Made by a program: the position numbers and the translations under genes. The notes under the pieces are model-generated. The model made no database searches, was not told the origin of the DNA, and saw nothing but the letters and a program-made list of their open reading frames with translations. From UHGV virus genome UHGV-0151217: a stretch of 32,488 nt of DNA; one strand, written 5' to 3'. Positions 3,725 to 21,836 of the stretch are shown piece by piece; positions within the stretch are counted from its first letter, which is position 1, and each line of letters begins with the position of its first letter. This DNA comes from a virus.

Positions 3725-4618
3725 ATGAGTTTAATTACGCAATTAAATGACGTAATGGCCCGTCGCGGCTATACGCAGACCCACGTCGCCCGTGCAATTG
3801 GTCGTAGCAGCGCCGTTATCAACCAGTATTTGCAGGGTAAATATCAGGGCGATATGGCTGATATTGAAGAACGCATTTCTGCCTTTGTGACCCGTGAGCG
3901 GGAAAAGGAAAACAGCCGCCGTATTAAAGCAAAGTTTGTGACCACCGGTATGGCTGCCAAAGGACTGGAGGTGCTGGCCTACGCTCACCTGGAATGTGAA
4001 ATCTGTGTGCTGTATGGCGCAGCTGGCCTTGGCAAAACAATGATTCTGCGTGAATACGCCGCCAGAAACCGGGATGCGGTCCTGATTGAGGCTGACCCAG
4101 GCTATACAGCCAGGACACTGCTTGAGGAGTTGTGCCGCCAGCTGGGGGTAAAGGTTCGCGGCAACATTCACGAACTGATTGATGCCTGTGTGCGCGAACT
4201 GCGTGATTCCGGTCGTCTGCTGATGGTGGACGAAGCTGAACTGCTCCCCTATCGCGCACTGGAGGTTCTGCGCCGTCTGCATGATAAAGCGGGTATCGGG
4301 GTTGTCCTGGCGGGTATGCCTCGTCTTCTGATTAATCTCAAGGGGCGTCGTGGTGAATTTGCGCAGTTATACAGCCGCGTGGCGCTGGCGCTTAACCTGG
4401 GCGACACGCTGGCGCAGGAAGATTTTAACCAGATAGCCACCGGGCTGATGCCGGAAGCAGCAGAACCGGAAATCAGCGAGGCGCTTTACGCGCGCTCGCT
4501 GGGTAATGCCCGCCGCCTGTTCAAACTGGCGCGCGGTGTGTACCGGATTTGCGATATCAGCGATGCGCCGGTCAGTGTGCAGGCCATAGATAAATTCGCA
4601 GAAATGTTAATTCACTGA
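3725..4618 (+). CDS. Transposition ATPase (MuB-like, AAA+)
   Basis: 297 aa with a Walker A motif (GAAGLGKT), a Walker B-like LLMVDEAE, and an N-terminal HTH-like segment. Directly follows the transposase. Confidence 0.85.
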   Translation: MSLITQLNDVMARRGYTQTHVARAIGRSSAVINQYLQGKYQGDMADIEERISAFVTREREKENSRRIKAKFVTTGMAAKGLEVLAYAHLECEICVLYGAAGLGKTMILREYAARNRDAVLIEADPGYTARTLLEELCRQLGVKVRGNIHELIDACVRELRDSGRLLMVDEAELLPYRALEVLRRLHDKAGIGVVLAGMPRLLINLKGRRGEFAQLYSRVALALNLGDTLAQEDFNQIATGLMPEAAEPEISEALYARSLGNARRLFKLARGVYRICDISDAPVSVQAIDKFAEMLIH

Positions 4619-4631
4619 GTAAAGGTCAGGT

Positions 4632-4964
4632 ATGGAACAGATTGCCGTAAAAAAAGAAATTAAAGCACTACGGAATATCGGTCGTAATGGTTGTATTTAT
4701 TTTAATGGAACCCCCGGTGAAATTATTCCGTTTGTTGATTGCTTCGTGCCGGGTGAACTGCGTATTGATTTATATTCCCGTGAACGGGAAATCAATGGAA
4801 CCGGAAATACCAGCGACGACTGGGATGTTGATGAATGCTGTGCGCGATTAATGATTATTCCTTTTGAGCAGACTTTGCAGGGGTTTCGTCGGGCTTACCG
4901 CCTTGCACGCATGTGTGCCCACCTGCCCCGGTATCAGCCCCGACTGGCGTTTACGCTCAGATAA
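4632..4964 (+). CDS. Hypothetical protein (accessory early region)
   Basis: 110-aa ORF, 13 nt after the MuB-like stop. Bracketed by a 19-bp direct repeat (see findings). No family recognised. Confidence 0.5.
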   Translation: MEQIAVKKEIKALRNIGRNGCIYFNGTPGEIIPFVDCFVPGELRIDLYSREREINGTGNTSDDWDVDECCARLMIIPFEQTLQGFRRAYRLARMCAHLPRYQPRLAFTLR

Positions 4965-5002
4965 TACAGCAGAGAAATGTTAATTCACTGATGGAGAACA
5001 AA

Positions 5003-5230
5003 ATGATGGAAAAGCAGGCCATTAATGCCGTCCGTTCCCGTGCCCGTGTGGCTATCCATACCACTGGCGGTCGCGTAACGGGGCAGCATCACCGTTTACC
5101 TGTGGTTTATGCCTGCCCGCCTGTGGGTGGTCCTGTATGGCCGGTAACGGAAATCGTTCAGACATTCAGCGGCCTGCGCCGCGTGGTTAAAACGTCCTGT
5201 ATCGACGGCTGTACCGTCGTATGGCAATGA
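5003..5230 (+). CDS. Hypothetical protein
   Basis: In-frame ATGs at 4991, 5003 and 5006. GGAG at 4993-4996 favours 5003. No family recognised. Confidence 0.45.
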   Translation: MMEKQAINAVRSRARVAIHTTGGRVTGQHHRLPVVYACPPVGGPVWPVTEIVQTFSGLRRVVKTSCIDGCTVVWQ

Positions 5231-5242
5231 GAGGAAATCAGA

Positions 5243-5458
5243 ATGGCGGTGAAATTAGAAGTAATTATCTATACCAATGAAAAAGGCGCGACTCTTACCC
5301 GGATTACAGGGAGTTATTCGAAGGATGGCACTTCCAAAAGGGAGCTTCAGGTGGCAACAGGATTACATGATGTTATCAAGGAAACGCTTAGAAATGACTA
5401 TAACGGCGTGAATCTTTTTTCTGAAAACGTTGCGCCTCGCGCACATAACACACATTAA
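5243..5458 (+). CDS. Hypothetical protein
   Basis: 71-aa ORF with RBS GAGAGGAAA 6-8 nt upstream of the ATG. Confidence 0.5.
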   Translation: MAVKLEVIIYTNEKGATLTRITGSYSKDGTSKRELQVATGLHDVIKETLRNDYNGVNLFSENVAPRAHNTH

Positions 5459-5487
5459 TCTGTAAATATCACTGAGGTAATTTAATT

Positions 5488-6132
5488 ATGACGACTGAAA
5501 ATAAAGTTAAGCAATACACGAAAACTCAAGCGCCTGAAGGTTATTGGGTGGATGCACGTGGCGTAATGACACCTGAAAGCCTTATCAAAGATATTGACCG
5601 CGACCGCGAGCAGCTGGTCGGTGAGCTTGTGGAGATGGTGATTGCTGCCTCCGCCTCACTACGTGAACTGAAACTGCGTGCGTTTGGTGATATTCAGGCG
5701 TTTATTGACCTGTCGGCGGAGAAATACGGCGCTGTGAAAGGCGGCAAAAAAGGCAATATCACGCTTTACAGCTTTGACGGGCGATACAAGATTCAGCGCG
5801 CCATGCAGGACCGTATCGCGTTTGATGAACGCATTCAGACCGCGAAGTCGCTGATTGATGATTGCCTGGCTGACTGGACGGAAGGTGCGCGCCCTGAAAT
5901 TAAAGCCATCATTAGCGAGGCATTCAGCACGGACAAGGAAGGCAACATTAACACAGGGCGCGTTCTGGCCCTGCGTCGCCTCGAAATTGAGGACGAACGC
6001 TGGAATAACGCCATGATGCTGATTGGTGAAGCCGTCCAGGTGATTGGCAGCAAGAGCTATATTCGTGTGTATGAGCGCGTTGGTGATTCTGATGAATACC
6101 GCGCAATCCCGCTTGATATTGCAGGGGTTTAA
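5488..6132 (+). CDS. Hypothetical protein (possibly DUF3164-type, as found in Mu-like prophages)
   Basis: 214-aa ORF with RBS GAGGT upstream. The family assignment is from memory of the profile and is uncertain. It is not Gam-like by eye. Confidence 0.65.
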   Translation: MTTENKVKQYTKTQAPEGYWVDARGVMTPESLIKDIDRDREQLVGELVEMVIAASASLRELKLRAFGDIQAFIDLSAEKYGAVKGGKKGNITLYSFDGRYKIQRAMQDRIAFDERIQTAKSLIDDCLADWTEGARPEIKAIISEAFSTDKEGNINTGRVLALRRLEIEDERWNNAMMLIGEAVQVIGSKSYIRVYERVGDSDEYRAIPLDIAGV

Positions 6133-6133
6133 C

Positions 6134-6367
6134 ATGCATCAGGATATCAAAGAGTACAGAGCCGGAAATCGTTGCGCGGCGTATTCGCTGGGTGCATCCA
6201 GAGCAGAACAACGCGGCGATTATGATGAGGCAGAAAAACTGTGGCGCAAGGCAGCGCAAAGCCCGTGTAGCACCCTGCGCCGCATCTGGGCTGAACATCG
6301 TGCGGAGTTCTGCGCTAACGCTCACCTGAAGGGCTGGAGGCCACGCCATGAATGCGAAGAACTTTAA
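6134..6367 (+). CDS. Hypothetical small protein (possibly ANR-family-like regulator)
   Basis: 77 aa, RBS GCAGGGG, starts 2 nt after the preceding stop. Helical W/R/A-rich composition resembles small ANR-type proteins. Tentative. Confidence 0.55.
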   Translation: MHQDIKEYRAGNRCAAYSLGASRAEQRGDYDEAEKLWRKAAQSPCSTLRRIWAEHRAEFCANAHLKGWRPRHECEEL

Positions 6368-6539
6368 TAAGCAGTATCCGGTAGGGACTCGCTTCATGCA
6401 CACTGCACATCCGGCGTTGCGTGGTGGTCGTGTGGTGAAAACCGTTTCACCTGCCAGAGATTTTAAATGTGGTTGTGTGGTTGAAATTAATGTCGAGCCT
6501 TATTTCGTTAAAATCGAAACACTGAAAGCACCGCATTAA
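6348..6539 (+). CDS. Hypothetical protein
   Basis: 63-aa ORF overlapping the end of the previous gene, with GGAGG 9 nt upstream. Confidence 0.5.
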   Translation: MNAKNFNKQYPVGTRFMHTAHPALRGGRVVKTVSPARDFKCGCVVEINVEPYFVKIETLKAPH

Positions 6540-6619
6540 TTTAATTTGTTTTTAATTGTTATTTAAAACAGGCGTAAACCCGCCGGGCTGGCTTACGCCT
6601 GAATCAAGAGGATTTGTAT

Positions 6620-7165
6620 ATGAAAGATAAAGTCTGGGATTTTATTGTTACTCCTGAAGGTTTTGCCACCCGTTCATCTGAGAAGTTAACCAATGTAACG
6701 TTATGGGCGTCATCCTTGCTGGGCTGTCTGGGAGCACCGGGTAATTTTATGGATGTGGTGCTTGATGCCCAGATTGCCGGGAATGCTGTGGCCAGTAGCG
6801 GGGCGTATATTCAGGGGGATTTGTTCGCCATGATGGCGAATGACACAGCAGCGCTGTATATCGCCACACGGAACATACTGACAAGAATAACCATGCTGTC
6901 TGACTGTAAGGATATGGAAGACCTCGCATACATCCTTGAAGATGATTTGCTCACTATTTCAGGCGTGCAGGAATCCCTCCCGCGTCAGTTGCGGTTTATT
7001 GACCTGATGGAGTCATATAAAGATAAGCCTGATTTTTTTCAGATTCGATTCAGTGGAATGGAACTACTGGATGAATATTATCCGCTGGATTCGATTTCCC
7101 GTGATGTGAAGGCGTTCGTTAAATCTGTTGACCGTCATTACCGGAAAACTGAACGTCGTAGTTAA
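6620..7165 (+). CDS. Hypothetical protein, no recognisable family (candidate moron)
   Basis: 181 aa from ATG 6620 with RBS AAGAGGA 6 nt upstream (a TTG at 6614 is less likely). Preceded by one copy of the conserved stem-loop leader and followed by the second copy. Confidence 0.7.
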   Translation: MKDKVWDFIVTPEGFATRSSEKLTNVTLWASSLLGCLGAPGNFMDVVLDAQIAGNAVASSGAYIQGDLFAMMANDTAALYIATRNILTRITMLSDCKDMEDLAYILEDDLLTISGVQESLPRQLRFIDLMESYKDKPDFFQIRFSGMELLDEYYPLDSISRDVKAFVKSVDRHYRKTERRS

Positions 7166-7245
7166 TAAGTCTGTTTTTAATTTTATTTGTATATGGCGTA
7201 AACCCGCCGGGGCTGGCTTACGCCTGAGTCAGGGAGAGTTTATTT

Positions 7246-7428
7246 ATGAATATCGCAAAGCAAAAAAAGTTCGCCCGCGAAATTAATCTGACAATCGTTT
7301 GTTTTAATCGTCTTGCGACCAGTTCTCAATCGACAGCAGATGCTCATTCAGTACCGCAGCCAGAACGAACTCCCCACGTTCCTGAAGGCCGTGCCGGAAG
7401 TTGCGTAATTCAGAATTCAGGATGCTGA
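7246..7428 (+). CDS. Hypothetical small protein (weak)
   Basis: 60-aa ORF with RBS GGGAGAG, directly after the second leader copy. The C-terminal half is S/T/P-rich and not obviously protein-like. Confidence 0.35.
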   Translation: MNIAKQKKFAREINLTIVCFNRLATSSQSTADAHSVPQPERTPHVPEGRAGSCVIQNSGC

Positions 7429-7441
7429 GGTTCAGACGACC

Positions 7442-8152
7442 ATGAAAAATAAATACATCGCCAAAATTAAAAAGCTGTTACGCCTTGCAAGAGGGACATC
7501 AAGCCCGGAAGAAGCCGCTAACGCTATTGCAAAAGCCCAGGCTTATATGCGCCAGCATGGTATCAGCGAAAACGACGCGGAATTGTTCGACATTCAGGAC
7601 GCTGCCAGCGCGGGTGCGCCGAGTGATGCCAGTACACCGCCGCGTTATATGCACATCCTGTGTGACCTGGTCTGTAAAGCCTTCGGTGTCGAGTGTTACA
7701 TCTCCGGCGAATACCGGGCTTCTGGTTCACTCAAACGTTACGTTCGTTTTTATGGTCCTGACAGCCGCCCGGAAATCGCGGCCTACGCGTTTGATGTGCT
7801 TTCCCGTCAGATGATGGCAGAGCGCAAGAAATATCAGGATAAACACTGCAAACGTTGCGGTCCGTCCACGCGGGTGGCCCGTGGCGACCAGTTCTGCGAA
7901 GGCTGGGGCTTTGGTGCCCGTGATGTCATTGCGGTGTATGACGTCTCCCCGGAAGAAAAAAGCCGCCTTGAGCTTTACAGAAAGAACCTGCACAGCACCA
8001 AGGGACTGCGCGACGGGGATATGCGCACCGCTAAAGCGTGCCGGGGTGCAGAGTCTGCCGCTACAGCCGGTTTTATCGCCGGGAAAAACGCCAGACTGCA
8101 TCAGGGGGTTAATGGTCAGAGCAACAAAACGCTGGCACTGGGGAGGGTGTAA
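7442..8152 (+). CDS. DUF2786-like protein (phage accessory protein of unknown function)
   Basis: N-terminus KIKKLLRLARGTSSPEEAANAIAKAQAYMRQHGI matches my memory of the DUF2786 signature. Central cysteines (HCKRCG ... QFCEGWG) suggest a metal-binding module. Confidence 0.7.
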   Translation: MKNKYIAKIKKLLRLARGTSSPEEAANAIAKAQAYMRQHGISENDAELFDIQDAASAGAPSDASTPPRYMHILCDLVCKAFGVECYISGEYRASGSLKRYVRFYGPDSRPEIAAYAFDVLSRQMMAERKKYQDKHCKRCGPSTRVARGDQFCEGWGFGARDVIAVYDVSPEEKSRLELYRKNLHSTKGLRDGDMRTAKACRGAESAATAGFIAGKNARLHQGVNGQSNKTLALGRV

Positions 8153-8154
8153 CG

Positions 8155-8382
8155 ATGGCTTTTAAACTTCTCAGTGTTACCGAAGCAATATACCAGCCGC
8201 CCGGAGAACGCCACGAATACAGGATGAATGACGGTAGCGCGGCGGTTGAGTTCCCTGAATATCCGGGGGCTTCCCGGTGGCGGTTCTATGACAGTGCGGG
8301 ACGCCGGATTATTAAAAGAACCGTGCACAACGCCATGAAAGCTGCTGTAGAACGTCACAAAAGAAGGTTTAACTGCAAATGA
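8155..8382 (+). CDS. Hypothetical protein
   Basis: 75-aa ORF with RBS GGGAGGG. Packed tightly between neighbours. Confidence 0.55.
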   Translation: MAFKLLSVTEAIYQPPGERHEYRMNDGSAAVEFPEYPGASRWRFYDSAGRRIIKRTVHNAMKAAVERHKRRFNCK

Positions 8383-8609
8383 ATATTGAATTTTATGACT
8401 ACGGAGTCACCGCAAAAATCATTGTTACCTGCTGGTTCTGGGAGTTCCGCCGCTATCGCCGGGTTGTGGATGCGGCGCTGTTTGTTGCTCCTGAAGTGCG
8501 CCATGAGAGCGGTGGCGGTCTTTTAATGAGAACAGTCATCACCGGTAAAACGGTTCCGATGTTACGGGCGTTTAAGGTGGCAAAACAGGAGGCTGGCAAT
8601 GGTCATTGA
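8379..8609 (+). CDS. Hypothetical protein
   Basis: 76-aa ORF with ATGA overlap to the upstream stop. Confidence 0.5.
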   Translation: MNIEFYDYGVTAKIIVTCWFWEFRRYRRVVDAALFVAPEVRHESGGGLLMRTVITGKTVPMLRAFKVAKQEAGNGH

Positions 8610-8889
8610 TAAAACGATAACGATAGATGTAGCCATGAATACAGGTCTGGCGCTTATCGGTTATGGCTATATCATTTTTATGTCATTCAGGTGGTTGATT
8701 TCTTCGTTCTTTAAGCAATGTGAAAAACGTCGCCGCAAAGACAAGCGCGTGAAGGCGCTAAATGCGTTTAATGACGCTTTTGATATTGACCGTATGCAGC
8801 AGGGAGATCCGGCACGCGTAATTACCCTGGGAGATATCGTGATTTTGGTATACCGGAGTGAAAAAAATGAGCAGGAGGCGGCGCAGTGA
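8599..8889 (+). CDS. Hypothetical small membrane protein
   Basis: 96 aa, RBS AGGAGG 7 nt upstream. One predicted N-terminal transmembrane segment (LALIGYGYIIFMSFRWLISSFF) followed by a basic stretch. Confidence 0.55.
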   Translation: MVIDKTITIDVAMNTGLALIGYGYIIFMSFRWLISSFFKQCEKRRRKDKRVKALNAFNDAFDIDRMQQGDPARVITLGDIVILVYRSEKNEQEAAQ

Positions 8890-9194
8890 ACCAGCAAACC
8901 AGAATAAGCGATAAGAGCCTGACCAGACTGATTGCCGATGCTGACAAAATGCTTGATATGCGCGGGCCGATTGTAGACAGAGAGTGGTGGACGCTCTTAC
9001 GGCAGTCCCTGCTGGAGCTTCAGGAATACCGGAGAGCAGGAATCATTCCGGTGACACCGGGAGCAAAAGAGCATCAGCTCAGGGAGCTGGTTAATAAATT
9101 ACGCGATGTGGCAATCAAATACCACGGAACGCAGCAATTACGGGCGCATATTGCAAAAACAGTAATCCGTTCAGGACTGATTTCAGGGGAATAA
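8886..9194 (+). CDS. Hypothetical protein
   Basis: 102-aa ORF from a GTG start overlapping the upstream stop (GTGA), with AGGAGG upstream. Confidence 0.5.
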   Translation: MNQQTRISDKSLTRLIADADKMLDMRGPIVDREWWTLLRQSLLELQEYRRAGIIPVTPGAKEHQLRELVNKLRDVAIKYHGTQQLRAHIAKTVIRSGLISGE

Positions 9195-9198
9195 TCAG

Positions 9199-9381
9199 AT
9201 GAAAAACCGTAAAGCAAAAATTCTTTTGACCTGTAGAAACGCTCGCGGCGTCCAGCAATGGCTAAAACTCAGTAACCGCAGAATGGGTTTGTTCACAAAC
9301 ACAGCTGATATTGTGATGTGTTCCCTTAACAAGCCCAGCGCAGCCCAAAATCGCTGGAAGAATCACACTAACGCAAAGTAA
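9199..9381 (+). CDS. Hypothetical small basic protein
   Basis: 60-aa ORF with RBS CAGGGGAA. Confidence 0.45.
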   Translation: MKNRKAKILLTCRNARGVQQWLKLSNRRMGLFTNTADIVMCSLNKPSAAQNRWKNHTNAK

Positions 9382-9399
9382 TTAAATAATAACCAACAG

Positions 9400-9445
9400 C
9401 AGACCAAAACATATGTTTTGGTCTGCCAAAAATGATGTTTTGGTC
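9400..9445. promoter_or_regulatory. Operator-like site: 26-bp perfect palindrome plus a third half-site
   Basis: CAGACCAAAACAT|ATGTTTTGGTCTG (9400-9425) and a further GTTTTGGTC at 9437-9445, just downstream of an AT-rich -10-like stretch (TAATTAAATAAT) and directly upstream of ATG 9449. Confidence 0.4.
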
Positions 9446-9448
9446 ATT

Positions 9449-9727
9449 ATGAAGATTGAACAAATCGGAATGGCAGCTTTCAGGCAACAGGCTGAAAGCG
9501 GTGGCGTGGATGAGTTCGTCGTGCAGCGGTTCGGGGGTGTGTATCACCTCTTCGCTGTGAATCGCCGCGCCGGGGTGTCCTATTTTCTACAGGAACGCCG
9601 TGGCGATTACAAGACGTGGCTGTCTCTTGACCGTGCCGCCGCGTTCCTGTCGGGGATTGGTGTTTCACGTTTTACCGTGCGTTTTGAGGATAACAAACAT
9701 GCAGAAAAAGATGATCGGGGCCATTAA
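9449..9727 (+). CDS. Hypothetical protein (start uncertain)
   Basis: ORF open from 9413 with in-frame ATGs at 9413, 9449 and 9470 and no clear RBS. 3' end overlaps gemA by 29 nt. Confidence 0.4.
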   Translation: MKIEQIGMAAFRQQAESGGVDEFVVQRFGGVYHLFAVNRRAGVSYFLQERRGDYKTWLSLDRAAAFLSGIGVSRFTVRFEDNKHAEKDDRGH

Positions 9728-10112
9728 AGCCGGTCAGGCATATCTGGGGTGGGATGATGCTCTTTATCGCCAGACACTGATCCGCCTGACAGGTAAAACC
9801 AGCACCACACGCTGCAATCTCGATGAACTGCGCATCATCCGGGAATACATGCACGAACAGGGATTTCCGCGCAAGGCCCCCGCTGGTAAAGGTCGCCGCC
9901 CTCGTGTTGCAATGAGCAGAAAATCGGTATTATCCAAAATTGAAGCGTTACTGGCTGATGCCGGTCGTTCCTGGGCGTATGCGGAAGGACTGGCATCTCA
10001 CATGTATAAGCAACATGTGATCGAATGGCTGACGGATGAACAGCTTTTCGGGGTGATGGTGGCGCTGACAAAAGACGCCAGAAAACGAGTCAGAGCAGCA
10101 CGTAAACAATAA
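9699..10112 (+). CDS. gemA: GemA-like regulatory protein (DUF1018 family)
   Basis: 137 aa from ATG 9699 with RBS GAGGA. MIGAIKAGQAYLGWDDALYRQTLIRLTGKTS... matches the GemA/DUF1018 pattern, and the position before Mor/C matches Mu. Confidence 0.7.
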   Translation: MQKKMIGAIKAGQAYLGWDDALYRQTLIRLTGKTSTTRCNLDELRIIREYMHEQGFPRKAPAGKGRRPRVAMSRKSVLSKIEALLADAGRSWAYAEGLASHMYKQHVIEWLTDEQLFGVMVALTKDARKRVRAARKQ

Positions 10113-10118
10113 AGAATC

Positions 10119-10145
10119 AGCCCCTGCCTTGCAGGGGCTTTTTTG
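10119..10145 (+). terminator. Rho-independent terminator after gemA
   Basis: AGCCCCTGC-CTT-GCAGGGGCT hairpin followed by TTTTTT. Confidence 0.6.
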
Positions 10146-10150
10146 TGGTC

Positions 10151-10178
10151 TGTACAGGCGATCATGTATGGCTATAAT
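10151..10178 (+). promoter_or_regulatory. Candidate sigma70 promoter upstream of the Mor/C-family gene (possible middle promoter)
   Basis: Perfect TATAAT at 10173-10178 with TGTACA 16 bp upstream, 30 bp before ATG 10208. Confidence 0.35.
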
Positions 10179-21494: not shown

Positions 21495-21836
21495 ATGGAA
21501 AAGGTGATTGAAATTACCGCCCGCCGTGAGGGTTTTCGCCGCTGCGGTGTGGCACACAGCGCAACCACGAAGGCATGGCCTGCGGATGCGTTCACCCCGG
21601 AACAGCTGGCGGTGCTGAAGGCTGACCCCATGCTGATTGTGGTGGAGCGCGATAAAGCATCCGGCCAGAACGACGCGGCCCGGGGGGATGAACTGGCCGC
21701 ACAGCTGGATGCCGAGCGTCAGAAAGTCAGCGAACTGACAGCGCAGCTGGAAGAAGAACGCCAGAAAGTCAGTGAACTGACCGCACAGTTGAACGCCGCA
21801 CAGAAAACACAAAAAGCGGACAAAAAGGAGAAGTAA
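21495..21836 (+). CDS. Hypothetical coiled-coil protein with internal tandem repeat
   Basis: 113 aa with RBS GGAG. Contains QLDAERQKVSELTAQLEEERQKVSELTAQL, a duplicated heptad-like unit. Confidence 0.55.
   Translation: MEKVIEITARREGFRRCGVAHSATTKAWPADAFTPEQLAVLKADPMLIVVERDKASGQNDAARGDELAAQLDAERQKVSELTAQLEEERQKVSELTAQLNAAQKTQKADKKEK

Follow-up and report, generated by a model that had tools for sequence, protein, structure and literature searches.

A conserved intercistronic hairpin in the early operon of Mu-like phages, predicted to act in the sense transcript, and its exchange with hammerhead ribozymes in distant relatives

The virus genome UHGV-0151217, a stretch of 32,488 nucleotides (nt) that is referred to at its full length as the window, is a Mu-like prophage of Escherichia coli. 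Its early operon carries two copies of an intergenic unit that contains a hairpin. Here we describe this element, which is conserved across the Mu-like phages of the Enterobacterales, and conclude from sequence comparison that selection has acted on an RNA hairpin within the early mRNA, on the sense strand. Elements of this kind, placed between cistrons as punctuation of a phage operon and flanking its variable genes, are already known. What appears to be new is the hairpin motif itself, its occurrence in Mu and its one-for-one replacement by hammerhead ribozymes in distant relatives. By analogy with the ribozymes we favour, at a little under an even chance, a role in mRNA punctuation, in which the element would be a site of processing by host ribonucleases (RNases) or of mRNA stabilisation and would double as a joint for the recombination of gene cassettes.

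Copy 1 separates a conserved gene of 63 amino acids (aa) from a 181-aa gene, and copy 2 follows the latter. Scores are those of a covariance model (CM) of the element.

6540 to 6619, plus strand: element copy 1, the whole 80-nt intergenic unit (CM 73.9 bits)
6571 to 6599, plus strand: hairpin of copy 1, 29 nt, GGCGTAA-ACCCGCCGGGCTGGC-TTACGCC
7166 to 7245, plus strand: element copy 2, the 80-nt intergenic unit trailing the 181-aa cassette (CM 73.8 bits)
7195 to 7224, plus strand: hairpin of copy 2, 30 nt, GGCGTAA-ACCCGCCGGGGCTGGC-TTACGCC, the commonest variant of the hairpin family

Each unit consists of an AU-rich tract with TTAA boxes, the hairpin, a tail (TGAATC in copy 1) and a Shine-Dalgarno (SD) sequence. 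The initial annotation, made from the letters of the window, had considered the regions upstream of the ATG codons at 6620 and 7246 to be homologous, and this is confirmed. A MAFFT alignment of 6536-6625 with 7160-7251 has 88% mean column identity and three one-base gaps, the pair was picked up independently by a repeat finder, and the expected chance count of the 30-nt core pattern is 0.00 (100 shuffles). The hairpin starts and the 7-bp (base pair) stem GGCGTAA/TTACGCC proposed there also stand, but the hairpins end at 6599 and 7224 rather than at 6600 and 7225, and the supposed GC-rich loop of about 15 nt is mostly paired in the predicted fold. Above a 7-bp lower stem (GGCGUAA/UUACGCC) this fold has two short helices of two pairs each, the first after an A.C and the second after a C.U mismatch, and then a G-rich loop of 3-4 nt. 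The hairpin of copy 1 is one G shorter than that of copy 2 and can be extended by two pairs (CAGGCG...CGCCTG, 6569-6601). No T-run follows either hairpin (the tails are TGAATCAAG and TGAGTCAGG), and a consensus scan detected neither a terminator nor a sigma-70 promoter at either copy on either strand, which bears out the earlier view that the element is not a terminator.

Covariation across related prophages had been suggested as a check of the structure, and it supports a hairpin on the transcribed strand. In a CM alignment of 66 sequences 85% of the pair cells are paired, compared with 16-49% when the partners are slid, and both sides have changed in six of the 13 pairs (41 cells); these figures are generous, the alignment being fitted to the model and the sequences being related by descent. 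None of 500 shuffles reaches the observed covariation score, a statistic that overstates the significance. A pair count based on MAFFT agrees with the picture given by the CM. In the set of 44 different hairpins almost no change is seen in the first four pairs, the exception being one G-U at pair 2. Pairs 5 to 7 switch from U-A to C-G in seven variants and from A-U to G-C in five and one variants. Such lower-stem switches are seen in the Mu group, E. coli C5, Pantoea rodasii and Erwinia tracheiphila, among others, and the inner stem covaries too. The length of the hairpin is 29-31 nt in 43 of the 44 variants.

The assignment to the sense strand follows from the pairing, the folding energies and the direction of the genes. 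Several variants contain two or three G-U pairs on the plus strand, which are A.C mismatches on the minus strand. The predicted energy of the 44 variants is narrowly distributed on the plus strand (mean -14.4, standard deviation 2.4 kcal/mol) and scattered on the minus strand (standard deviation 3.9, as weak as -7.5 kcal/mol; Levene p=0.003). All genes at the locus are on the plus strand. That the minus strand is instead the functional one, as an antisense terminator or insulator that blocks leftward transcription into the transposition genes, is very improbable. The commonest variants do fold better there (-18 to -22 versus -13 to -15 kcal/mol), 90.8% versus 85.8% of the cells are paired as the conserved A.C becomes G-U, and a sequence (A/U)UUUUAAA comes after the minus-strand hairpin of copy 1 and of several relatives. 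However, this advantage comes from a single conserved position, and other variants lose 5-8 kcal/mol on the minus strand while their plus-strand stability is kept. The T-tract is missing in copy 2, the C5 variant and many relatives, the terminator scan was negative at both copies, and no minus-strand genes or promoters were seen near the element.

The flanks of the hairpin are conserved as well. A logo of 52 non-redundant copies contains TTAA(A) boxes at about -29, -18 and -7, and their 11-nt period places a TAA stop in each reading frame. The sequence UUUAAAWAU is strongly conserved and abuts the hairpin. T occupies position -1 in 51 of the 52 copies, the sole exception being copy 1 of the window, and the tail is WAAAUC with A at +3 in 50 copies. 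The hairpin is 31-32 nt from the preceding stop codon in 96 of 153 instances and 12-28 nt from the next start codon. The SD usually follows after 6-8 nt (up to 19 nt) and is left free in the predicted folds. In an otherwise tightly packed operon the unit fills the main sizeable gap.

Two translational readings of this boundary were considered. Programmed -1 frameshifting at U UUA AAN was rejected: the site is located past the stop codon and is itself followed by TAA in frame, with a spacer of no more than 2 nt. In the other, the last two flank bases and the 5' arm would form a tiny upstream open reading frame (ORF), AUG-GCG-UAA, the translation of which opens the hairpin or tunes re-initiation. 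ATG or TTG does precede GCG-TAA in nearly all copies, and the sole A-to-G change in the stop codon (Pantoea rodasii) still yields a stop, TGA. However, this ORF has no SD and its start codon abuts a hairpin of -14 kcal/mol. It has 15 codons in Mu and 18 in the C5 variant, with neither peptide nor length conserved, and ACA replaces the start codon in E. coli copy 1 and in the hybrid element of relatives that lack the 181-aa cassette. We give this explanation very little credence.

The element belongs to phages and not to the host chromosome at large. A blastn search (word size 11) with the 79-nt unit in 5426 complete E. coli genomes located it at 90 places in 59 genomes, with one to four per genome, and every locus examined is a Mu-like prophage. 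This distribution rules out a dispersed host repeat of the REP or ERIC type, which the initial annotation had named as fatal to its own interpretation. The REP and BIME repeats are likewise GC-rich imperfect palindromes without a T-run between the genes of operons, and we take the string GGCGTAAAC to resemble the tip of some REP sequences. However, REPs occur in hundreds of copies per chromosome, and the element is confined to Mu-like prophages.

Loci of relatives were collected via the DUF3164 protein of the early operon (L-numbers denote such loci or phage sources). The hairpin was found in 21 enterobacterial genomes and is present in DUF3164 loci of Photorhabdus, Xenorhabdus, Yersinia, Serratia, Pantoea, Erwinia, Kosakonia, Mixta, Trabulsiella, Phytobacter and Lonsdalea; the copy in Morganella is degenerate. 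At least 120 contigs of IMG/VR contain it according to a pattern scan, in which the fixed pattern under-samples the hairpin variants. It also occurs in two isolated phages, Klebsiella phage ST405-OXA48phi1.1 and phage VW-6B.

Phage Mu itself (L177, AF083977) carries the unit in the 98-nt gap between gam and gene 11 (6326-6423). The Mu hairpin (6367-6396), GGCGCGA-UACGUCAGGAGAUUGC-UCGCGCC, scores 43.6 bits with the CM (E about 2e-6). Mu is without the 63-aa gene, and its hairpin follows gam. The unit is also present in D108, SfMu and Mu-type phages of Yersinia. In none of these records is the hairpin annotated, and that of Mu marks only a ribosome-binding site (RBS) in the gap. The literature searched, including by exact sequence strings, contained no prior description of the element; older Mu literature was outside its coverage and may hold an earlier mention. 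No curated RNA family (Rfam 15) reached its gathering score in the window, the enterobacterial loci or Mu. A relaxed search (E<=10) of 4500-10000 gave chance-level matches only, the best being Lnt RNA on the minus strand (26.5 bits against a threshold of 55, E=1).

A different RNA takes the place of the hairpin outside of the Enterobacterales. The intergenic gaps of more distant relatives with DUF3164 were surveyed and compared to Rfam. The type II hammerhead (RF02276) has 26 matches in 19 non-enterobacterial loci, with 56-83 bits (gathering score 37). All 26 have the sense orientation and are located 3' of DUF3164 within the early region, at one or two per locus and often on the flanks of the DUF2786 homologue (for example L039:6620-6685; L025:7859-7925 and 8604-8677; L027:7645-7709 and 8382-8453, all within the loci L021-L050). 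The hosts include Pseudomonas, Stutzerimonas, Vreelandella, Acinetobacter, Marinomonas, Undibacterium and Desulfovibrionaceae. Hairpin and hammerhead are mutually exclusive in the loci scanned: neither the hairpin nor the 63-aa gene was found in the 19 hammerhead loci, and no Rfam family matched in 15 hairpin-bearing sources (the window, 12 enterobacterial genome loci, Klebsiella phage ST405-OXA48phi1.1 and the left 11 kb of Mu). In L025, L027 and L046 a ribozyme lies directly upstream of a DUF2786 homologue, and in L025 and L027 a second one directly follows it. The ribozyme slot upstream of DUF2786 is thus the syntenic equivalent of the hairpin slot in the Enterobacterales.

Two further observations concern these distant loci and their boundaries. 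Phage VW-6B (L175, 5091-5168), reported from Pseudomonas fluorescens, has the enterobacterial type of hairpin and the 63-aa gene and no hammerhead, unlike the sampled Pseudomonas prophages. Gaps of the same region in L037 (7013-7090 and 7367-7430), L042 (8673-8806) and L051 (7194-7296) contain other strong hairpins, without the enterobacterial hairpin or a hammerhead. These are unrelated in sequence, and no T-run was seen directly after them.

Type II hammerheads are defined by three helices around the core CUGANGA...GAAA...NUH. The element resembles them in its position on the sense strand between the genes of a polycistronic phage operon, in the presence of one to three copies that flank single variable genes, and in the use of the same slot directly upstream of DUF2786 in relatives of this phage family. 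The layout is also alike, for the downstream mRNA left by a hammerhead would carry a hairpin at its start, some 10 nt ahead of the SD. The element differs in that it has no CUGANGA/GAAA core, a single helix and no Rfam match even at E<=10, so that cleavage, if any, would need a host enzyme. A comparison by eye suggested that the hairpin might be homologous to the hammerhead's 5' half (GCGAAAC and stem III compared with GCGUAAAC and the inner stem), but the Rfam model did not detect such a homology and the idea has been discarded. One gene family downstream of the element is Lar-like (restriction alleviation), with a score just below the Pfam threshold, and one of the prophage hammerheads flanks the anti-restriction gene ardA (PMC3088659). 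Perreault et al. (2011, PMC3088659) proposed that prophage hammerheads on the flanks of single variable genes cut long transcripts of the phage into mRNAs with one gene each.

We propose that the element would act in cis, as an RNA of about 75-80 nt in the sense-strand early polycistronic mRNA of Mu-type phages. It would extend from an untranslated AU-rich tract with stops in three frames through the hairpin of 29-31 nt and an A-rich tail to the RBS of the next gene. Cleavage by an endoribonuclease of the host would take place in the unpaired AU-rich sequence that adjoins the hairpin, and the hairpin would cap the new end, this structured end protecting one of the products. The stability and translation of the upstream transposition and replication genes would be uncoupled from those of the variable accessory genes downstream. 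Cutting by a hammerhead would leave an upstream RNA that ends in stem III and a downstream RNA that starts with the stem I hairpin shortly before the RBS. Because the enterobacterial unit shares this downstream layout (hairpin, about 7 nt, SD) and is flanked by AU-rich sequence, it may represent a version of hammerhead punctuation that relies on a host nuclease.

A known precedent is provided by the RNase III sites between the early genes of T7, where the hairpin left at the new end stabilises the mRNA. Both are intercistronic hairpins without T-runs in a phage early operon transcribed by the host. The T7 sites are two-part helices of about 20 bp with an internal loop, in contrast to the 12-13 stacked pairs of the element, for which cleavage is a conjecture. 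RNase E, which cuts single-stranded AU-rich sequence, would be a generic candidate for the nuclease. RNase P would be another. Its hairpin substrates have U at -1, a G1-C pair, a 7-bp stem and a coaxial helix of about 12 bp and fixed length, and a 3' RCCA helps. The element fits these features in its invariant G1-C pair, its 7-bp lower stem, the U at -1 (51/52) and its nearly constant length (43/44).

Several points weigh against punctuation by host RNases. The 3' RCCA tail of RNase P substrates is absent (the tail is WAAAUC), and A, not U, is found at -1 in E. coli copy 1 and in the hybrid element of the cassette-less relatives. The motif of RNase E is too weak to be diagnostic. At 12-13 stacked pairs (10-12 in the predicted folds) the hairpin falls short of the two turns or so of double-stranded RNA in T7-type RNase III sites, which makes this enzyme unlikely. 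Cleavage or stabilisation, and the identity of the nuclease, we infer solely from the anatomy of the element and the analogy with ribozymes, and the biological role of the prophage hammerheads is itself unproven. The generous covariation figures also count here. Finally, the GGCG/CGCC stem, the loop and the flanks (T-8, T-1 and A+3 in 50-51 of 52 copies) are conserved beyond the need of a simple exonuclease barrier, and this excess could point instead to a factor that binds a specific sequence.

Such a factor is the basis of a second reading, in which the hairpin is a sense-RNA operator for a trans-acting translational repressor or activator, or an antitermination site similar to nut or put. 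The sequence conservation of the lower stem, the G-rich loop, the two mismatches and the flanks fits this reading, as does the untranslated tract with three-frame stops, which would keep the hairpin free of ribosomes. The hairpin is 6-8 nt from the SD in most instances, and a strong intrinsic terminator is present further down the early region, before mor (10119-10139). In both the element and lambda nut, which are parts of early operons, a hairpin comes after AU-rich boxes that are not translated (a loose echo of boxA plus boxB), and both may be present in two copies. However, the boxA consensus (C/U)GCUCUUUAACAA is not matched: its core GCUCUUUA is not conserved apart from UUUAA, and the logo keeps only UUUAAAWAU, with the GCUC positions unconserved. 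The 12-13 stacked pairs, two mismatches and (A/C)GGG loop of the element do not match boxB, a 5-bp stem with a purine-rich pentaloop. The element is about 5 kb from the promoter, no N-like protein is known, and no candidate for one was identified. The obvious partner would be the adjacent 63-aa protein, for which an SH3-like fold is predicted, yet Mu has the hairpin without this protein. The distance to the SD reaches 19 nt, the SD is free in the predicted folds, and relatives place a self-cleaving ribozyme in the slot rather than a binding site. On balance we regard an operator of this kind as unlikely.

The favoured reading, mRNA punctuation, includes a role of the same unit as a homologous joint at which single-gene cassettes would be gained, lost and exchanged. 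This role is suggested because the operon is tightly packed and has, apart from the unit, no long non-coding sequence that is conserved, and it would explain why the 181-aa gene is bracketed by two copies. The element is preceded by the 63-aa gene in 137 of the 153 retained instances, normally as a single copy. The slot downstream is occupied by 25 gene families among 149 instances, and the commonest gene directly after the element is DUF2786 (44/149). Cassette family C2 (22 instances), also directly after the hairpin, starts with a resemblance to the 63-aa SH3-like protein (L124:2225 onward, …FNAAFPLGSSFTYHS…), which hints at a duplicated or fused copy of the SH3-like domain.

Extra copies of the hairpin are found only after inserted single-gene cassettes. 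Arrays of the type gene-hairpin-gene-hairpin are present in L088, L056, L101, L169, L123 and L057; in L088 the order is 63-aa gene, hairpin, DUF7448, hairpin, 125-aa gene, hairpin, DUF2786. In E. coli C5 (and L056) a DUF7448 cassette is followed by a diverged hairpin, GGCGCAG...CUGCGCC, with compensatory changes in the stem. Four relatives without the 181-aa gene (L064, L066, L113 and L173) have one hybrid element. It corresponds to copy 1 on its left flank and to copy 2 on its right, and the homology changes over within the hairpin. The copies in the window are therefore direct repeats that bracket a cassette. On this sequence evidence cassettes are most probably gained and lost by recombination within the repeats, and the exchange looks like ordinary homologous recombination. 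The element is a boundary marker of one slot of the early operon and is duplicated only upon the insertion of a cassette. The initial annotation was correct to see a shared structured element that is not a terminator; its description as a leader of two particular genes gives way to that of a slot boundary.

Hairpin units that bracket single variable ORFs and serve as recombination joints are known from the T4-type PeSL (early promoter plus stem-loop) and from the attC sites of integrons. The element shares with them a repeated hairpin unit, variable ORFs in a hyperplastic region and the proposed function as a joint. It differs from PeSL in the lack of a sigma-70 promoter consensus at either copy in the scan, and from attC in a site organisation that appears to be different (no scan for attC core motifs was made) and in that the annotated genes of the prophage region include the Mu transposase and no integrase, whereas attC goes with a tyrosine integrase. 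A more far-reaching reading is that the element is a new mRNA-cleavage module of phages (a tRNA-like minihelix that recruits RNase P, or a tiny self-cleaving motif), swapped with hammerheads at the same slot and defining an integrase-free, integron-like array that shuffles anti-defence and other accessory genes. We consider this rather unlikely.

The same observations can be read at the level of DNA. The unit would then be a conserved linker that serves recombination only, a place where a nucleoid or phage protein binds the phased TTAA boxes, or an internal promoter of low strength with its -10-like sequence abutting GGCG. The breakpoints of cassette insertion and deletion inside the hairpin accord with this, as do the 11-nt period of the boxes, which is close to one helical turn, the sequence NANNAT directly upstream of the hairpin in most copies, and the resemblance of the arrays to T4-type promoter/stem-loop cassettes flanking variable ORFs. 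The G-U pairs and the narrow plus-strand stability, however, favour selection on RNA over a DNA cruciform, and the consensus scan found no sigma-70 promoter at either copy. Transcription from the -10-like sequence would start in the 5' arm and leave the covariation of the lower stem unexplained, and the T at -1 is missing in E. coli copy 1 and the cassette-less hybrids. Mu has not kept the phasing of the boxes, and the element is not accompanied by a recombinase. The flanking genes of the two Mu-type lineages are unrelated, and second-order selection for recombination alone would be unlikely to preserve a 30-nt structure in both. A role confined to DNA is in our view quite improbable.

The early operon of the window is on the plus strand. 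It begins with genes for a Ner-like protein, the Mu transposase and a MuB-type ATPase, several small genes, DUF3164 and an ANR-like gene. The 63-aa gene, copy 1, the 181-aa gene, copy 2, DUF2786/DUF7168, further genes, GemA and Mor follow. The region 6536-7260 is 99.9% identical to a prophage adjoining uspA in strain RIVM_C036569. The genes around the two copies are:

6348 to 6539, plus strand: 63-aa gene, conserved, precedes the element in most relatives (PHROG 5591, function unknown)
6620 to 7165, plus strand: 181-aa accessory cassette gene, an orphan of E. coli prophages only (PHROG 7741, function unknown)
7246 to 7428, plus strand: 60-aa ORF of doubtful coding status, between copy 2 and the DUF2786 gene
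7442 to 8152, plus strand: DUF2786/DUF7168 gene, the next solid gene after copy 2

The 63-aa protein is confidently predicted to be a small beta barrel similar to SH3, Tudor or KOW domains, and searches for its relatives gave no informative ones. As first supposed, the 181-aa protein has no recognisable family, for Pfam contains none that matches. Exhaustive HMMER searches support its orphan status: its close relatives, with at least 85% identity, all come from E. coli prophages, and the only other match, to a mucin-binding protein, is weak, driven by repeats and judged to be spurious. The AlphaFold model is all-helical, with a pLDDT of 47 that makes it unreliable and unusable, and the structural half of the proposed check thus yielded nothing. 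The initial annotation regarded the gene as consistent with a moron. Its GC content is indeed lower than that of the window (0.46 versus 0.544), but this is not distinctive, given the 0.44 of the conserved 63-aa gene. It is oriented with the flow of the early operon between the two hairpins, and the consensus scan found no promoter or terminator flanking 6620-7165. Because it has no promoter or terminator of its own, the gene is an accessory cassette of the early operon and not a classical moron, which would carry both and could thereby be expressed from a repressed prophage.

The two copies had been placed before two unknown genes. This holds for the 181-aa gene and is doubtful for the ORF that starts with ATG 7246, which has no family and no excess at the third codon position among 21 variable sites (9/6/6). 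The 60-aa ORF is annotated in some RefSeq records, and the minus strand of 7246-7441 contains a protein-like frame without a start (...NFRHGLQERGEFVLAAVLNEHLLSIENWSQDD*). This region may be the remnant of a gene.

Other features of the window were noted in passing. The strong intrinsic terminator at 10119-10139, AGCCCCTGC-CTT-GCAGGGGCT and then TTTTTT, is directly 3' of gemA. Between it and mor (within 10119-10178) is a sigma-70-like promoter (10/12, TGTACA-16-TATAAT). Because of this terminator and promoter we suggest that mor is not simply read through from the early promoter. A perfect palindrome of 14+14 nt (GCAGACCAAAACAT/ATGTTTTGGTCTGC, 9399-9445) overlaps a second, imperfect 20-nt palindrome at the start of an ORF and could be an operator. 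Two 21-nt repeats in tandem, TTTAAAAGATT(T/C)TAAA(A/G)C(T/C)CG, are found close to the left prophage end (453-494) and may be binding sites of a repressor or transposase. Inside a late gene (21690-21815) three tandem 42-nt repeats encode a repeated 14-residue motif of the ELAAQLDAERQKVS type.

Phage Mu, a classic model, carries the element in its early operon, where it is unannotated and without an Rfam family. The element marks a precise hotspot, with 25 gene families so far, in which new accessory or anti-defence genes of phages can be sought. If it is a site of processing or stability, it would explain how the essential transposition genes of Mu-type phages are uncoupled from the variable 'semi-essential' genes. 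It would also be the first counterpart of the prophage hammerhead ribozymes that depends on a host RNase, and both could then be compared in one tractable system.

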